IMG/VR virus record: IMGVR_UViG_2711768058_000009
Coordinates: 1-12,670 of that record
Source: a virus
Lineage: Duplodnaviria > Heunggongvirae > Uroviricota > Caudoviricetes
Length of the DNA stretch: 12,670 nucleotides
Reading direction: 5' to 3' (one strand)
The translations under genes and the position numbers were made by a program. This document shows, in pieces, positions 1,633 to 12,225 of the stretch. Within the stretch, counting starts at the first letter, position 1. Each line of letters starts with the position of its first letter. The notes beneath the pieces are model-generated. The model saw nothing but the letters and a program-made list of their open reading frames with translations. It ran no database searches and was not told the DNA's origin.

Positions 1633-4077
1633 TTAAAAATCAGCTTGACTCGGGATCAGTTTTTGCCAGATTGCTGACACGTATTTTGCCTGGTAACGGG
1701 CGTCATCAAGTGCATTATGGCGCTCACCTTCGAATGGAATAGTCGTTCTGGCATCGAAATCTATCACCAGTCCCAGAGCAACCATCGTTCGTACATCACG
1801 ATCGTTGTTGTAGCGCCACGGACAGGGGATCCCCTGTCGTTCATATGAACGGCGTAAAATTACGTTGTCGAAGTTGGCTCCATTTCCCCACACCTGAACA
1901 AAAAATTCACCGGAGTTTTCGGCGATAAACTCCCTGAACTGCAACAGCGCGTCATCCAACGGGATTTCATTGGTAAGAATGGCGGATTGTGCTTCGCGTG
2001 ACTGTTTCAGCCACCACTTAATGGTGTCCCGATCAATGACTCCGCCAGCAGTTTCCAGATCGATAGTCTTACTAAATTCCGGTCCCATATCTCCGGTTTG
2101 CGGATCGAAAAATATTGCACCTATTGAGATGATCGGGGCATCAGGATTTTTTCCCATGGTTTCAAGGTCGATCATTAGATGGTCACACGTCCTGCTGGTG
2201 GATGTGATTTCGTGATGACCGTTCACCTTAATTGGGTGATCTGCCGTCTCGCCAGTTTCATTATCGCTATCGTGATGCTGATTGCCGCCAGTGTTCTCCT
2301 TGTGTGGATGTTCAGCGCCTTCCATTTCCTCCGGATCATCTTTCTGAACTTCAACCTGATTCTCTTCATCGAATGTTTCCTGGTATGTTGTGTCGTCCAT
2401 CACCGCGCCACAGTCAGGACAGTTACCGCCGCTGGTCTGACCATAGGCGGTGCAAAATTTTTCCACTTCCTGTTGCGCTACTGGTTCAAGAAGTTTCGTT
2501 TCTGGCTCGTTTTGTCGCGCATTTGGGCTGTTTTGTTCTGCATTTTGGTCGTTCTGTTCCGTTTCTTGCTGGTTCTGGTTCACAGAATCGCGGGTTTCAA
2601 TCCCCTTCACCCATTTCGGATCATTCGGGTCGCTAATCCCTTCAACAAATTCTCCACGAGAAGCAGCCAGTAACTTGTCGGCATCAACAGGATTTTGGGG
2701 CGGAATGTTTTTCCGGGCTTCATGGAGTTCTGACCGCAGTTTCTGATATTTCGCATCAACAGAATTTACCTGTGACTGAGCATCCAGCGGCTGCGTGTCC
2801 TGATGATGTTCAGTTGCATCCGGTTCCACTGTTTCAGCCGTTGCCTGTTCATCTGCCATTGCGCAAGATGGTTGCGGTTTTTTTTCATCATCCTGTTTTT
2901 CTTCTTCTGTTACACGCTGCGGCATCGGGGCAGAGGAGCGACCGCAGGCAATATCCACGATTTCCGGATCAGGGTTGGCATGATCGGTTTCAGTCAGTAC
3001 TTTGTTCAGATATTCAGTGACGTGTGCGGGGATGACCTCGATCCCAATTGGTGCTTCTTTTACGGACGCAACCACGATGGCGCGGGAATAATCCAGCCCG
3101 CCAGGCATGGTGATGAATTTGTCGCGGAAAACAGAAAAGGGCGATTTATTTTCAGCGATAATTTCCTCGATACGTTTAGCGTGTGCCGGATGAAGGTTAT
3201 AAATGTCCACGTCCATTGAACGAGCTAGTACGCCAGTGGCTACGTCGCGCGCCAGTGACGTCAGATCGTGAACGAAACCTTCGCCGCGATCAGTGAGGTT
3301 CCCGCCGCCAGCATTAGCGCCGGAAGCCGTGCGCGTGATGCGTGAAATACGATTTCCTTTCATCCACTCTTTTGTCAGCAGACCGCGATCGGTGTAGTCA
3401 GCGTTCAGGTATGATTCGATAAAAGAGGTCATCAGTCCCAGGTCTGAATTTACTGGGGCTGGGAAAACTTTGTCAGTGTCTCGCACCAGTTTGTATAAAT
3501 CCCGAATTTCCAGCGGCCCCAGTTGAGCTGCTTTATTTGAAATGGCACGGGTTGTAACCGTAGGGAGTTCTTCATCCAGTGCACTATGCAATGCCCGAAG
3601 TTCTTCCCGTGAAACGTGCGTTACCGGTTTCTCGCTGCCGTGTTGTGCAAGCCAGCGAACGGGCAGTTCCTGACCAGAAATCGGCAGGAGCATACCATCC
3701 TCAATCTCTGTCATATCTTCGCCGTTGACGTTGGTATTGTCAGTGCTGGCTGGTTTGTGCTGCGAAGAGGAAGAGGGCGCGCTAAATATCATTGTGATGC
3801 CATCTTCCCCGCCTTTTTCATATCGATTGCAGAATTCGGTATCAAACACGCCTTCCGGTGGAAGGTCATTCACAACGGGTAAATGGACACGGACGGGTTT
3901 TTTAAAGTCGTCTTCATCATAATCGTTGTCATCCATTGCAGTAATGCAGCGGGAGATAGCAACAGATAATTTTTTTGCTGTAGTCCAGTAAAAACCACCT
4001 TTAATTCCCAGGCGTTTTCTGACTTTGTCATTTTTTGCTTCGCAATATAGTGCAAATTCTTCTTTATCAGTGCTCAT
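1633..4077 (-). CDS. Large 814-aa protein: N-terminal domain of unknown function, acidic Q/N/E/D-rich linker with one CxxC, C-terminal DEDDh (DnaQ-like) 3'-5' exonuclease domain
   Basis: Long uninterrupted ORF. The three exonuclease motifs are visible in the C-terminal 190 aa: [26 protein letters not shown] 7 nt upstream of the ATG at 4077. Occupies the slot between xis and the early-left genes where lambdoid phages carry exo/bet or recE/recT. Confidence 0.85.
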
Positions 4078-4191
4078 TGATAAACCTCATAACTATTTTA
4101 AGGTTGTATGAACCCCTGCCATTTCAGGCATGCTTAATCAGTTGGTATGGCGTTAATATGGCTGGTGGGTTATCCAGCCGGTGTTTCGTTA

Positions 4192-4353
4192 TTACAGAGA
4201 TACTTTTTTTAACGGGAGGCATTCGCCGGAAAATTTTTGCTCATCTCTTGCCTGAAGGCAGGTTGCCTTACTGTCATAAATTCCGGTAATCATATTCTGT
4301 GACTCACCTGCTGTAAGAAAAACCGTCATCACCAGTGCAAATGCCGAAGTCAT
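4192..4353 (-). CDS. Small hypothetical protein, 53 aa, with a hydrophobic signal-peptide-like N-terminus (MTSAFALVMTVFLTAG...)
   Basis: Not in the ORF track (under 60 aa). The ATG at 4353 overlaps the TGA of the upstream ORF (ATGA, translational coupling). GGAGA 6 nt upstream. Confidence 0.35.
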   Translation of the reverse strand: MTSAFALVMTVFLTAGESQNMITGIYDSKATCLQARDEQKFSGECLPLKKVSL

Positions 4354-4713: not shown

Positions 4714-4766
4714 AAAAAAGGCGGCAGAGCAGTTACGGAGTAAAACTGGTACCGCCAAACGTCACC
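4714..4766 (-). terminator. Candidate intrinsic terminator for leftward transcription: GGCGGUA/UGCCGCC stem followed by U6
   Basis: Minus-strand RNA would read GGCGGUACC...CUGCCGCC then UUUUUU (plus-strand A6 at 4714-4719). The loop is long, so stability is uncertain. Confidence 0.35.
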
Positions 4767-4905
4767 AGAAAATGGATAACAGAGGGCGTTGCAGCGTGGT
4801 TGTCTCTTAAGCGTATGGTCAACCTGACAACCCGGTGTACTCAACGGGGAAGGAATAACCACGCCATACTTACCGCCGCGCCATTTCGCGGATTGCCACA
4901 ACCGG

Positions 4906-6814: not shown

Positions 6815-7233
6815 AAATCAAGCATGAGCATATCGAATCAGTGCTGTTAGCTATGGCTGCTGCAAAAGGGCAGGCATGGGTCGCTAACGCCATTACTGAG
6901 GAATATCTGCGCCATGGGGGAAGTGAATTGCCCCTCGTACCAGGCAGGGACTGGAACAATCAGCAGAATATCTATCACCGTTGGTTGAAAGGTGAAACGA
7001 AAGCGCAAAGGGAAAAAATTCAGAAACTGATCCCTGCGGTTCTGGCAATTCTTCCGCGCGAGCTGCGTCACAGGCTAAGTATTTACGACACTCTGGAACG
7101 CCGTGCATTACTGGCGGCGCAGGAAGCGTTGAGTACGGCAATTGATGCACATGATGATGCAGTCCAGGCCGTTTACCGGAAAGCGTATTTCAGCGACGGC
7201 GGGTCATCCGGCGAGTCTGTTGTGGTGCATTGA
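6811..7233 (+). CDS. YdaT-like protein, 140 aa, in the CII position of a Rac-type immunity region
   Basis: Translationally coupled to the Cro-like gene. The order repressor / Cro-like / this gene / DUF1376 matches the Rac racR-ydaS-ydaT-ydaU arrangement. Family assignment is from memory. Confidence 0.7.
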   Translation: MKIKHEHIESVLLAMAAAKGQAWVANAITEEYLRHGGSELPLVPGRDWNNQQNIYHRWLKGETKAQREKIQKLIPAVLAILPRELRHRLSIYDTLERRALLAAQEALSTAIDAHDDAVQAVYRKAYFSDGGSSGESVVVH

Positions 7234-7319
7234 TATTTATGCCAGACCTCTGCTGATTCTGTTGATTGGGGAATCACAGAATATCACCAGAGGATGGTTC
7301 GTCACAAGATGAGGCAATT

Positions 7320-8333
7320 ATGGCCGCATTACCATACATGCAACTGTACATAGCTGATTACCTGGCTGACACCATGCATTTGTCCGCAGAGGAGCACGGC
7401 GCGTATTTGTTGCTGATGTTCAATTACTGGCAAACAGGGAAACCAATACCAAAAAACAGACTGGCAAAAATCGCCCGTCTGACTAACGAGCGATGGGCTG
7501 ATGTAGAACCATCCTTGCGGGAGTTTTTTTGCGATAACGGCGACGAATGGGTGCATCTTCGGGTTGAGGAAGATTTGGCATCAGTCAGGGAAAAATTAAC
7601 CAAAAAATCGGCCGCAGGAAAAGCATCTGTTCAGGCCAGAAGAAACAGAAAGGAAGCAGATGTTAAAACAAAACACGAGGGAAATTTAACAGGTGTTCAA
7701 ACAGATGTTGGAGTGGCGTTTGAACATTATGCCAACACAAAGGCAACTAATAAAGATACAGATCTAAAAGAATTAAACCCCACACATAACGCGCACGTGC
7801 GCGAGAGTATTCCGACCAGTGAGTTGAATGGTGCGCCGTTGCAGACAGCTGCTCCCGAATACCTGGACGGACTTAGCGAACCCATCGGAAAATTTCCGAT
7901 GACTGGTGACTGGCATCCGTCGCCGGATTTTCGACGACGGGCGGCGCTGTGGGGAGTGGCTCAGCCGGAGCCAGAATTTACACCTGCTGAACTTGCCGCC
8001 TTCCGGGACTACTGGGCAGCGGAGGGGAAAGTTTTTACGCAGGTTCAGTGGGAGCAGAAATTCGCCCGTCACGTAAATCACGTCAGGGCGCAGGTTAAAC
8101 CAGTCAGTAAGGGGGTAAACCATGCGGCAGCAGCATCTGGAACCGCATCACGGGCAGTTCAGGAAATTCGGGCAGCACGTGAACAGTGGGAGCGGGAAAA
8201 CGGATTTGTCAGCGACGGAAACGGCGTGGAAGCTGTGGGAACTCATGGGGGAGGTTTATTCAAACCGCTGGACCCGGAAGAACGGTTCCGCACCTCCGAA
8301 GCTCTGGATTGCCCAGATTGGCGCGATGACTGA
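7320..8333 (+). CDS. DUF1376 (YdaU-like) replication initiation protein, O-protein analogue, 337 aa from the ATG at 7320
   Basis: N-terminal signature LYIADYLADTMHLSAEEHGAYLLLMFNYW fits the DUF1376 pattern. GAGG 6 nt upstream of the ATG at 7320; the track ORF starts at an upstream TTG. Sits in the O position before a P-like gene. Confidence 0.75.
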   Translation: MAALPYMQLYIADYLADTMHLSAEEHGAYLLLMFNYWQTGKPIPKNRLAKIARLTNERWADVEPSLREFFCDNGDEWVHLRVEEDLASVREKLTKKSAAGKASVQARRNRKEADVKTKHEGNLTGVQTDVGVAFEHYANTKATNKDTDLKELNPTHNAHVRESIPTSELNGAPLQTAAPEYLDGLSEPIGKFPMTGDWHPSPDFRRRAALWGVAQPEPEFTPAELAAFRDYWAAEGKVFTQVQWEQKFARHVNHVRAQVKPVSKGVNHAAAASGTASRAVQEIRAAREQWERENGFVSDGNGVEAVGTHGGGLFKPLDPEERFRTSEALDCPDWRDD

Positions 8334-10663: not shown

Positions 10664-10832
10664 TTTTGGTTCAACTAAATACAACGTCAGTTTTGAAGCA
10701 TGGCATGAACTGTTAATGGACTATGCAGAGTTACGTGGTGGCAGTGCTGCTGATGCTGAAGCATGGCGTGATGATTATGAAGCAGGAAAAACTCCGGTCG
10801 AAGCATATTGTGATGAGTGGGGCGATGAATGA
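10656..10832 (+). CDS. Acidic small protein, 58 aa
   Basis: Not in the ORF track (under 60 aa). MADFGSTKYNVSFEAWHELLMDYAELRGG… Start overlaps the upstream stop, and its own stop overlaps the ATG at 10829, so three genes are coupled. Confidence 0.45.
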   Translation: MADFGSTKYNVSFEAWHELLMDYAELRGGSAADAEAWRDDYEAGKTPVEAYCDEWGDE

Positions 10833-11344
10833 GCGAGATTAATTATCAGGAAGGGCATGAAACGGCAGGGCAGGCAAAACCAGTTGCATGGCGATATCGC
10901 TACGTGAAAAAAGACGTTACAGACTTTCAGGGGAAGCCGTGGGCTGGTGACTGGAAATATGTACCGACAAAAGAGGATTGTAACGACAGGCCGAACTATG
11001 AAATTCAGGCCTTATTCATCGGCCCGCCAGTCACGGTGACATCAGAAGGACTGGTTAAAGCCGTGCGCTTTTATGAACAGGTAAAGCGTGAGAATCCGCC
11101 AGTCGAAACAGGAGCATGGAAGGATGCTGTTGACTGGGTGCTCAGAGAGGCCTGCTGCGCTGCCATTCTGGGTAAAGCCGACAATCCACCAGCATCCGGC
11201 AATCAGGTTAGCGAATTAACAATGTGGGTTAAACGACTGGTCAGTCAACTGAAAAAAGCTCAGCCGGACTGCAAATTACCGGAGAAGGCGATGGATTACC
11301 TGAAACGAAATGGACTGATAAGCGTGGAGGATGTTTTACGATGA
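10829..11344 (+). CDS. Hypothetical prophage protein, 171 aa
   Basis: Clean ORF, translationally coupled to the upstream small genes. No family recognised with confidence. Confidence 0.7.
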   Translation: MSEINYQEGHETAGQAKPVAWRYRYVKKDVTDFQGKPWAGDWKYVPTKEDCNDRPNYEIQALFIGPPVTVTSEGLVKAVRFYEQVKRENPPVETGAWKDAVDWVLREACCAAILGKADNPPASGNQVSELTMWVKRLVSQLKKAQPDCKLPEKAMDYLKRNGLISVEDVLR

Positions 11345-11390
11345 ATATTTAGACTAAAGAGTTTGTAACGCTATGTAAGTGATTTTTTCT

Positions 11391-11424
11391 GGTTTAGATA
11401 TTTATATGTCCGGCCAAATTGAGG
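11391..11424. repeat. Copy A of an imperfect direct repeat of about 35 bp (GGTTTAG…ATATTTA…TGTCCGGCCAAA)
   Basis: Aligns with 11662-11697 (GGTTTAG…ATATTTA…TGTGCCGGACAAA). Sits upstream of the small membrane ORF. Confidence 0.4.
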
Positions 11425-11464
11425 TGTGTTTAAATGTTATTGCACATTGATTGTAGGGGGAATA

Positions 11465-11644
11465 ATGAAAAACGCATTGCAGTTTTTGTTTGTTGCGTTC
11501 TGGTTGTTCGCATCATGTATGCCCATCATCTTCACAGCAAGGTATATGGAAAAAATTGATGTTTTGATATTAATGTTTGGACATATAAATGCCCTTTTTT
11601 TAGGGGTGTTCATGGCGGTCATGTGCATTGAATACTGGCGGTAA
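11465..11644 (+). CDS. Small hydrophobic membrane peptide, 59 aa, about 2 transmembrane helices
   Basis: GGGGG 4 nt upstream of the ATG at 11465. Very AT-rich. Sequence MKNALQFLFVAFWLFASCMPIIF…LFLGVFMAVMCIEYWR. Flanked by the direct repeats. Confidence 0.45.
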   Translation: MKNALQFLFVAFWLFASCMPIIFTARYMEKIDVLILMFGHINALFLGVFMAVMCIEYWR

Positions 11645-11661
11645 ATACAGCGAACGCCATT

Positions 11662-11697
11662 GGTTTAGTTGGATATTTACTGTGCCGGACAAAAACG
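11662..11697. repeat. Copy B of the direct repeat of about 35 bp, upstream of the hok locus
   Basis: Aligned by eye to copy A at about 70% identity with one 3-4 nt indel. Confidence 0.4.
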
Positions 11698-11698
11698 G

Positions 11699-11727
11699 TT
11701 TGCGGGGAAATCTTAGTTAAGTAGAAT
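11699..11727 (+). promoter_or_regulatory. Candidate promoter for the hok mRNA (weak -35 TTTGCG, 17-nt spacer, -10 TAGAAT)
   Basis: -10 TAGAAT at 11722-11727 is a 5/6 match to consensus. Position is appropriate for a long hok leader. Confidence 0.3.
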
Positions 11728-11789
11728 AACTGCGGGTGCTTGAGGCTATCTGTCTCAGGCATGAACACCAAAAGGCAGATAGAGAAAAG

Positions 11790-11855
11790 CCCCAGTTAAC
11801 ATTACGCGTCCTGCAAGACGCTTAACATTAATCTGAGGCCATATCTATGCGACAC
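11790..11855 (-). ncRNA. Predicted Sok-like antisense RNA; extent approximate
   Basis: Minus-strand promoter TTGACC (plus 11884-11889) -16- GCTAAT (plus 11862-11867) would fire leftward across the leader ORF's RBS and ATG (11835-11849), as in canonical hok/sok loci. Confidence 0.3.
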
Positions 11856-11906
11856 ATAGAGATTAGCCTCTTACGGACCGAAAGGTCAAGGAGAAGCAGG
11901 CTATGA
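11847..11906 (+). CDS. Short mok-like leader ORF, 19 codons, ending in an ATGA overlap with the hok start
   Basis: GAGG 8 nt upstream of the ATG at 11847. Stop TGA at 11904-11906 overlaps the hok ATG at 11903-11905. No long mok frame with an ATG/GTG/TTG start was found overlapping hok. Confidence 0.35.
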   Translation: MRHIEISLLRTERSRRSRL

Positions 11907-12058
11907 AGCAGCAAAAGGCGATGTTAATCGCCCTGATCGTCATCTGTTTAACCGTCATAGTGACGGCACTGGTAACGAGGAAAGACCTCTGCGAGGTACG
12001 AATCCGAACCGGCCAGACGGAGGTCGCTGTCTTCACAGCTTACGAACCTGAGGAGTAA
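11903..12058 (+). CDS. hok: Hok/Gef-family type I toxin, 51 aa (HokD/RelF-like membrane peptide)
   Basis: Translation MKQQKAMLIALIVICLTVIVTALVTRKDLCEVRIRTGQTEVAVFTAYEPEE is a hallmark Hok-family sequence, with an upstream leader ORF and antisense promoter. Confidence 0.9.
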   Translation: MKQQKAMLIALIVICLTVIVTALVTRKDLCEVRIRTGQTEVAVFTAYEPEE

Positions 12059-12066
12059 GAGACCAG

Positions 12067-12088
12067 GCGGGGGAGAAATCTCCCGCCA
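12067..12088 (+). other. GC-rich hairpin at the 3' end of the hok mRNA (GGCGGGGGAG…TCTCCCGCC)
   Basis: Stem of about 9 bp with no following U-tract. Hok mRNAs carry 3' structures involved in fold-back inhibition. Confidence 0.4.
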
Positions 12089-12225
12089 CCTCTGATGTGT
12101 CAGGCATCCTCAACGCACCCGCGCTTAACCCGCTTCGTCGGGTTTTGTTTTTTCCTGGCATTCTGGTTTACAATTCGCACGTCAGCCTGAACAACTGGCA
12201 CCTGCTGCGCCAGCAGAGAAAACCG

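Follow-up and report, generated by a model that had tools for sequence, protein, structure and literature searches.

A replaceable AT-rich cassette upstream of hok in a Rac-like lambdoid prophage carries a gene for a predicted small membrane protein and an imperfect repeat of ordinary significance

When two similar stretches of DNA lie on either side of a small open reading frame (ORF), and the second leads into a hok toxin gene, are they a control element shared by both genes, the scar of an insertion, or neither? This question is raised by a 12,670-nt stretch of DNA (here called the window) that represents the integrase-to-nin part (early/nin region) of a Rac-like lambdoid Escherichia coli prophage. 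The initial annotation of the window drew attention to a repeat around a 59-aa ORF and put forward the first two of these answers. The reading favoured here, which we hold with moderate confidence as a whole, is that the repeat is a chance or incidental feature, that the DNA around it is a cassette with a real gene for a small membrane protein, and that neither is linked to the regulation of hok.

The prophage of strain LZHX12 is 99.9% identical to the window across the 1272 bases compared (10829-12100). It is located between yecN-side genes and yecD and carries, from left to right, int, xis and exo on the minus strand, the replication genes, several small nin-type ORFs, hokD and a rem-like gene. 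An Rfam match places DicF at 4719-4770 of the window, on the minus strand. The features discussed below are collected in Table 1.

Table 1. Features of the hok-proximal part of the window (positions are those of the window).
Feature	Position	Strand	Remarks
Upstream nin-region gene	10829..11344	+	171 aa; PHROG 660, function not assigned; stop codon in ACGATGA (11338-11344)
AT-rich replaceable cassette	11345..11689	+	345 bp; holds both repeat copies and the 59-aa ORF
Repeat copy 1	11390/91-11418	+	(T)GGTTTAGATATTTATATGTCCGGCCAAA, TGGTTTAGATATTTATATGTCCGGCCAAA; 47-75 nt before the ORF start codon
Shine-Dalgarno sequence of the 59-aa ORF	11455..11460	+	GGGGG here, AGGAGG in most other copies (11458 G/A); 5 nt before ATG
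Gene for 59-aa two-helix hydrophobic protein (predicted)	11465..11644	+	MKNALQFLFVAFWLFASCMPIIFTARYMEKIDVLILMFGHINALFLGVFMAVMCIEYWR; AT-rich; based on paralogue, intact loci and predicted fold
T7 homopolymer run in the ORF	11596..11602	+	Frameshift site in public assemblies; 55-aa and 83-84-aa forms diverge here
Predicted RNA hairpin	11638..11683	+	5' arm GGUAAAUA, including the ORF stop codon; 3' arm UAUUUACU, the copy 2 core
Repeat copy 2	11661/62-11693	+	(T)GGTTTAGTTGGATATTTACTGTGCCGGACAAA, TGGTTTAGTTGGATATTTACTGTGCCGGACAAA; right end of the cassette
Putative hok promoter region	11690..11733	+	-35 TTGCGG (11700-11705), -10 TAGAAT (11722-11727)
hok mRNA leader with sok antisense target	11734..11905	+	Rfam RF01794, 106.7 bits, full model
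sok	about 11785-11853	-	By alignment to the 933W sokW annotation
hok (hokD-type) toxin gene	11903..12058	+	51 aa; Pfam HOK_GEF (PF01848), E = 1.2e-23

The unit at 11690-12144 is a standard member of the hok/sok loci, with both a Hok/Gef domain protein and the leader/sok RNA structure, and RefSeq names the product HokD in an identical prophage. The hok transcript was taken to start near 11734, where the Rfam match to the hok/sok leader begins. The -35 and -10 hexamers are our own reading of the sequence, anchored on that Rfam-implied start; with just 8 of 12 positions matching, they escaped the consensus promoter scan. Hok loci of the 933W type become homologous to the window at 11688-11691.

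Comparison with other prophages defines what lies between the upstream gene and this unit. In 933W and three further loci (L008-L010), the upstream ACGATGA and the downstream AAAAACGGTTTGCGGG (11690 onward) are common with the window, and the only content between them is an 81-bp ORF for a 27-aa hydrophobic peptide. In strain ECL27977 (L006), the same place is taken by 457 bp of unrelated DNA that includes an 85-aa ORF, and homology resumes at 11710. Upstream homology ends exactly at ACGATGA in all of these loci, which sets the left junction at 11344/45 and the right junction at 11689/90, or at 11709/10 when compared with L006. Since alternative fillings occur between the same flanks, 11345-11689 is a replaceable cassette, sitting in a slot that reaches from the stop codon of the upstream gene to about -45 of the hok promoter. 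Both repeat copies lie within it, copy 1 beginning 46 bp inside the left junction and copy 2 forming the right end.

The cassette is widespread and is passed on as a unit. It was found in 1570 of 5426 complete E. coli genomes (~29%) at 95-100% identity, with 100% in ATCC 25922; 1552 of 1571 records span at least 80% of it, indicating that it travels whole, and hok follows in essentially every case. Its G+C content is 34-37%, versus 50-53% in the flanks. Among the matches listed (PGAP/RefSeq; of the 1570 carrier genomes), no feature is annotated under the cassette, and no Rfam family falls within it. A candidate homologue at 52% identity (L013) was dropped, as its assembly is error-ridden with many frameshifts.

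Morons are extra genes inserted between conserved genes of lambdoid phages (the Juhala/Hendrix concept). The moron-like character attributed to the ORF region by the initial annotation was borne out by the comparison with 933W, L006 and L008-L010, which revealed a replaceable, AT-rich segment between conserved flanks. Replacement between conserved flanking genes and a distinct base composition were thus both found. As in morons, the segment is discrete, has a lower G+C content than its surroundings, holds one small accessory gene and has its junctions at gene boundaries. It differs from them in being one of several alternative fillings, not a simple presence or absence, and in having no recognisable promoter or intrinsic terminator; the consensus scan that found neither in the cassette also misses the hok promoter. 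The cassette is an uncharacterised phage accessory (moron) gene for a small membrane protein, of a familiar kind.

The ORF itself has the position, length and AT-rich composition first given for it. An exhaustive HMMER search identified a paralogue that is 44% identical and also exactly 59 aa long. It is found at the ttcA (Rac) site, in what remains of a decayed prophage that still has an int fragment and a DUF1627 fragment, and it lies directly upstream of a hok remnant that has lost its 5' part. This paralogue is present in 1045 of the 5426 genomes, unannotated among the matches listed, and was intact in 6/6 complete genomes sampled. Between the two genes, start and stop codons align and no indels occur over 180 nt, versus several in the spacers. 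Nonsynonymous differences are the rarer class (pN 0.34 vs pS 0.70; dN 0.46 and dS about 2.0), giving a dN/dS of ~0.23. As judged by sequence comparison, this retention of frame, start and stop codons, combined with the low dN/dS, is good evidence that the 59-aa ORF is a real protein-coding gene.

Variation within E. coli gives a less tidy picture. The ORF is intact in all 86 viral-contig and genome loci (86/86), and close relatives of the protein are confined to E. coli and Shigella. Its variable sites comprise 0 synonymous and 8 nonsynonymous positions, with conservative changes, against a neutral expectation of 68-80%. Forms frameshifted at the T7 run make up ~15% of the cluster members listed in public assemblies by our count, and none of the 86 loci. 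Given that all variation is nonsynonymous and that these frameshifted forms are listed, present-day constraint on the protein is not demonstrated.

The predicted protein would be a membrane protein. AlphaFold2 models it as a helical hairpin with helices at residues 2-26 and 31-58 (mean pLDDT 75), and the hydropathy profile, with two hydrophobic segments, agrees with this fold. Searches of Pfam, PHROGs, NCBIfam and PADLOC returned no match to it, and a full-text literature search for the peptide sequences returned no paper. Two possible relationships were rejected: BLASTP finds no homology with the 27-aa peptide of the 933W-type loci, and SMP7, a 192-nt small ORF from a CFT073 Ribo-seq preprint, is a different locus with unrelated sequence. 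The same-length paralogue, the dN/dS of ~0.23, the intact frame in 86/86 loci, the AGGAGG Shine-Dalgarno sequence of most copies, the predicted two-helix fold and the absence of annotation among the matches listed together support the earlier suspicion that this is an unrecognised small membrane-protein gene.

Most likely, the product is a phage accessory protein of the inner membrane. The gene would be transcribed with the nin region from the early rightward operon, possibly with an additional weak promoter of its own, and the product would insert in the inner membrane as a helical hairpin and play an accessory role for the phage. The usual roles of such small phage membrane proteins are exclusion, lysis timing and membrane modulation. 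For instance, HK97 gp15, T4 Imm and the class II holins and antiholins are small phage inner-membrane proteins that act in superinfection exclusion or lysis control. The 59-aa protein resembles them in size, in its two-helix hairpin (predicted here) and in its place in a temperate-phage accessory region, but no sequence or family relationship to them was found. The gene is worth keeping in view as an addition to the catalogue of small membrane proteins missed in prophages.

If the gene is real, what of the repeat that surrounds it? Two look-alike stretches are indeed present where they had been placed, and the similarity holds, but the proposed length of about 35 bp does not: the copies measure 28 and 32 nt, and the ends originally given, 11424 and 11697, overshoot by 4-6 nt. 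In a gapped local alignment, copy 1 and copy 2 agree at 25 positions and differ at 2, with gaps of 4, 1 and 1 nt. The similarity is carried by two exact 8-mers, TGGTTTAG and GATATTTA, followed by CCGG and CAAA. These 8-mers overlap by one base in copy 1 and lie 3 nt apart in copy 2, which accounts for the 4-nt gap. The last 3-4 bases of copy 2 are part of the hok unit.

The weight of this similarity depends on the scale at which it is assessed. When only the two flanking spacers are compared, composition-preserving shuffles give p = 0.003, or p = 0.014 if copy 2 is limited to the cassette proper. Across the window as a whole, six pairs of direct repeats spaced 100-500 bp apart score at least as well, versus ~1.1 in block-shuffled windows. 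Two further two-copy families of equal quality occur within the same 700 bp, the first of 29 nt at 72% and the second of 25 nt at 76%. Hence the similarity can be aligned, as had been done by eye, but its significance in the window as a whole is ordinary. The repeat is correct as a description and not clearly beyond chance. The p of about 0.003 for the spacers by themselves nevertheless carries some weight against a chance reading.

Polymorphism does not preserve the resemblance. Across 85 independent loci (23 haplotypes), positions 11404, 11410 and 11415 vary in copy 1 and position 11686 varies in copy 2, and all four polymorphisms decrease the match between the copies. The density of variable sites in the copies (4/62) is about that of the surrounding spacers. 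Most likely, then, the resemblance, which consists of two shared AT-rich 8-mers with CCGG and CAAA, is fortuitous. At most it is a side effect of how the RNA folds locally, since the predicted hairpin that takes in the ORF stop codon has copy 2 as its 3' arm.

A regulatory element duplicated between the peptide gene and hok was the first of the two original proposals, and the hok loci themselves speak against it. The second copy had been described as sitting in the hok promoter region. It does lie upstream of hok, but at about -73 to -41 relative to the putative start near 11734 it ends before the -35 hexamer is reached and is thus not in the core promoter. Most hok-bearing phages and genomes, 933W and the other Stx phages among them, resemble the window only from 11687-11691 rightward; across thousands of genomes, homology limited to hok starts at 11687-11691, 11710/15 or 11731, and copy 2 is therefore absent there. 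The spacing of the 8-mers and their distances to the downstream genes also differ between the copies: copy 2 ends 41 nt before the hok transcript start, and the equal offset from copy 1 falls, in our reading, inside the Shine-Dalgarno sequence of the peptide gene. In the paralogous cassette, lastly, comparison of the two spacers shows no repeat (score 14 vs a shuffle mean of 14.7), and the region equivalent to copy 1 retains only about 45% identity by our count. The repeats are not part of the hok/sok control unit, which is independent of copy 2.

A looser version of this proposal is that the pattern TTTAG(N0-5)ATATTTA is a true cis-element of the cassettes that occupy the slot, an idea we regard as unlikely. 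The word would flank or precede moron ORFs, perhaps as a binding or nucleation site for an H-NS-like silencer of AT-rich foreign DNA or for a phage regulator, and would affect hok where copy 2 lies just upstream of the hok -35. AT-rich DNA is the usual target of H-NS, and the cassette is AT-rich. The spacer-level similarity of the copies (p about 0.003-0.014) is in keeping with such an element, as is the confinement of the pattern to these positions across about 100 fetched loci. The L006 cassette adds an independent 21-mer resembling copy 2; it has TTGTTTTAGTTGCTATATTTA directly 5' of its own ribosome-binding site (match to copy 2, p = 0.002). Against this, the 4-nt difference in 8-mer spacing amounts to ~137 degrees of helical phase, and the distance from the word to the downstream start codon or transcript start is different each time it occurs, at 60 nt, 55 nt (hok start) and 13 nt. 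The motif is lost in the paralogous cassette, and the polymorphisms strike shared bases. To our knowledge, no PhoP-box, IHF or H-NS motif fits both copies.

The L006 match calls for particular caution. A 17-mer from it also occurs ~34 times in unrelated AT-rich viral contigs, where such words arise easily, and it was therefore treated as unexplained and not as evidence for a motif. Two marginal matches to one word could indicate a real short motif. An origin of copy 2 from the 5' part of the 85-aa cassette, left behind by an ancestor with the two cassettes in tandem, was also considered and rejected: no contig carries both cassettes, and the similarity extends over just 21 nt.

Function of hok in the absence of copy 2 bears on the same idea. 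We take the hokW-sokW pair of Sp5 to be of the 933W type. Experimentally, hokW-sokW is a working toxin-antitoxin system (PMC8621323), an example of hok loci that work without copy 2.

Copy 2 might instead count only as RNA, a reading that we consider distinctly unlikely. It would serve as the 3' arm of a stem-loop at the end of the peptide ORF, which would stabilise the upstream transcript or insulate hok from read-through transcripts, in which the 5' end of the hok mRNA would be wrong. Copy 1, by pairing with the interior of the ORF, would control its translation, and the look of a direct repeat would be a side effect, arising because both copies pair with TAAATA-type words. The predicted hairpin at 11638-11683 has a folding energy of -19.5 kcal/mol (z = -2.65), and the core of copy 1 (11400-11411) is a perfect 12-nt inverted repeat of 11579-11590, a pairing that appears when the whole cassette RNA is folded to minimum free energy. 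The three polymorphisms within this inverted repeat (11404, 11410 and 11582) all retain pairing as G-U in our reading, and GC-rich palindromes occur at the equivalent place, just before AAAAACGG, in other hok contexts.

Several observations weaken this RNA reading. The whole-cassette fold reaches a z of only -1.95, and three wobble-preserving transitions would arise by chance about 1 time in 8. The hairpin is not preserved in the paralogue (z = -0.31), which gives no support to the copy 1 pairing either, and no covariation speaks for the hairpin. Since no U-run follows it, it is not a classical terminator. Finally, 933W-type loci lack any spacer between the upstream ORF and the hok unit. Fortuitous similarity, or one at most incidental to RNA folding, remains our preferred account of the repeat.

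The position of the 59-aa gene beside hok raises a separate question about the cassette. At least four unrelated types of small hydrophobic peptide (27, 29-34, 36 and 59 aa) are encoded at the same position upstream of hok in different prophages, and the 59-aa family has stayed beside hok across 56% protein divergence. It is conceivable, and in our judgement quite doubtful, that such genes and the prophage hok loci belong together as a functional module that recurs, with TTTAG..ATATTTA, a short word present in two unrelated cassettes, as a possible common control site. If so, the peptide could act by modulating what Hok does, the integrity of the membrane or phage exclusion. The well-defined mosaic slot beside hok, and the short hydrophobic ORFs that recur there, merit being marked in any case. 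The prevalence of the cassette, its consistent omission from annotation and these recurrent ORFs raise its interest somewhat.

More specifically, the 59-aa ORF might encode another type I toxin, or a protein that works with Hok in the membrane, and owe its place beside hok to that role; this we consider very improbable. The gene is small and hydrophobic, lies immediately 5' of hok on the same strand, as do the unrelated peptide genes of other prophages, and its 44%-identical paralogue also directly precedes a hok remnant without its 5' part, which makes the linkage an old one. The 59-aa product and Hok are both small hydrophobic membrane peptides. They share no sequence similarity, however, and Hok has one helix where the 59-aa protein has two; a second helix and a length of 59 aa would both be unusual in a type I toxin. 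No antisense RNA was detected for the 59-aa gene, either as a family in Rfam or as a minus-strand promoter in the consensus scan, and the cassette with both repeat copies lies outside the conserved hok unit. The paralogue has stayed intact beside a destroyed hok and is therefore independent of Hok, and thousands of hok loci lack the 59-aa ORF. The linkage may merely reflect a common mosaic slot. An accessory inner-membrane protein of the phage thus remains the preferred reading of the gene product.

The remaining proposal, that the repeats are the scar of the arrival of the cassette (a duplicated target or recombination site), is largely refuted and scarcely credible: the copies do bracket the ORF within a region that is demonstrably a replaceable insert, but they lie off the junctions (left junction 11344/45, copy 1 start 11390), at 28-32 nt, with mismatches and gaps, they do not look like transposon target duplications, and a chimeric query in which copy 1 is joined straight to the hok unit found no single-copy empty site in 5426 E. 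coli genomes. Matches to this single-copy recombinant query were either in two pieces, with the cassette present, or 933W-type loci with the unrelated 81-bp filling. That filling, the 27-aa ORF, resembles neither copy (p about 0.3 or more), and derivation of the copies from its 3' end as a target duplication was rejected for lack of similarity. Target-site duplications and att-type repeats likewise place two direct repeats on either side of an insert, but those found here match only imperfectly, with gaps, fall within the insert and not at its junctions, and are not represented by a single copy where the site is unoccupied. The repeats are not an insertion footprint, and the repeat should be carried forward neither as a scar nor as a regulatory element. 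A copy 2 in H110 that appeared to be free-standing proved to be part of an IS1-truncated cassette; IS-truncated copies are the only exception to the rule that copy 2 is found with its cassette.

The DNA immediately preceding the hok promoter ends, in most contexts, in a short ORF that lies on the same strand as hok and encodes a hydrophobic peptide. This is seen in hok loci from viral contigs (L144-L223), compared over the equivalent of window 11560-11733. Across these loci and the window itself, the ORFs preceding the promoter belong to several unrelated types: 27 aa (MTWPEA..YSICRW(G/R)), 29 aa (MLVLKCALAITAVMAIYCLAIVLMDRLSD), 34 aa (MSDDISLAMEGALAVVAVVGVYCLVVFLMDRLGN), 36 aa (MIRLEKHIYLLLYTFAIFIAMLHLWRTRKGDILMSL) and, in this window, 59 aa. 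Four of them (all but the 36-aa type) were scanned, and none of the four has a significant match in PHROGs or a family match in NCBIfam. The top PHROGs score, between the 27-aa type and phrog_4612, is non-significant (E = 0.011).

In 933W-type phages, the ATG within ACGATGA, at the left edge of this slot, is the start of the 27-aa ORF, while in the window it opens a frame of only three codons (MNI*). It looks as if the cassette, the replaceable AT-rich segment that holds the 59-aa gene, had replaced the body of the 27-aa ORF. Another occupant of the slot, an unrelated 85-aa cassette in strain ECL27977, carries TTGTTTTAGTTGCTATATTTA directly 5' of its Shine-Dalgarno sequence. This stretch includes an extended -10-like TGCTATATT and resembles repeat copy 2, downstream of the 59-aa ORF (p = 0.002, two spacers compared).

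Within the cassette of the window, a perfect 12-nt inverted repeat (ATTTATATGTCC / GGACATATAAAT) joins the core of repeat copy 1, upstream of the ORF, to ORF codons 39-42. All three polymorphisms found in it retain pairing as G-U wobble. In one copy of the cassette (IMG/VR contig 2537561977_000021), an insertion of ~1.26 kb, about the size of an IS, lies between the ORF stop and copy 2, with an overlap of 4 bp at the insertion point.

The 59-aa ORF itself varies in public assemblies. Frameshifted forms of 55 aa and 83-84 aa make up ~15% of the listed cluster members and diverge at a T7 run within the ORF. Decay, slippage and errors of assembly are possible causes. In phage vB_EcoS-640R1 (ON470612), the CDS deposited across the cassette is an 83-aa 'hornerin' on the other strand from the real 59-aa gene, and it is almost certainly an annotation artefact.

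Coordinates of features in the window and in comparison loci
Feature	Sequence	Positions	Strand
DicF sRNA gene	window	4719-4770	minus
ACGATGA motif and MNI* frame	window	11338-11353	
12-nt inverted repeat	window	11400-11411 and 11579-11590	
T7 run	window	11596-11602	
Overlap at insertion point	window	11654-11657	
mok-like leader ORF	window	11847-11906	
'hornerin' CDS	L001 (vB_EcoS-640R1)	4063-4314	minus
TTGTTTTAGTTGCTATATTTA	L006 (ECL27977)	2125-2150	
IS-sized insertion	L037 (2537561977_000021)	2193-3457	
Paralogue	L094	829-1008	
Paralogue	L096 (E. coli JJ1886)	7230-7409	

The ttcA/Rac site holds the remnant of a prophage, heavily decayed, in which a 59-aa paralogue, 44% identical to the peptide gene, has survived intact. 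In the hok remnant that adjoins the paralogue, the promoter, leader and N-terminus are missing. Of 5426 complete E. coli genomes, 1045 carry the paralogue, and none of the rows listed shows an annotated feature under it.

Downstream of the slot, the mok-like leader ORF of the window is just 19 codons long and ends in a TGA that overlaps the ATG of hok (ATGA). In the 933W annotation, by contrast, mokW is an in-frame N-terminal extension of hokW, a difference caused by small indels. Elsewhere in the window, Rfam detects a full-length gene for the DicF antisense sRNA (70.5 bits), and the prophage therefore carries a dicBF-type division-inhibition operon.
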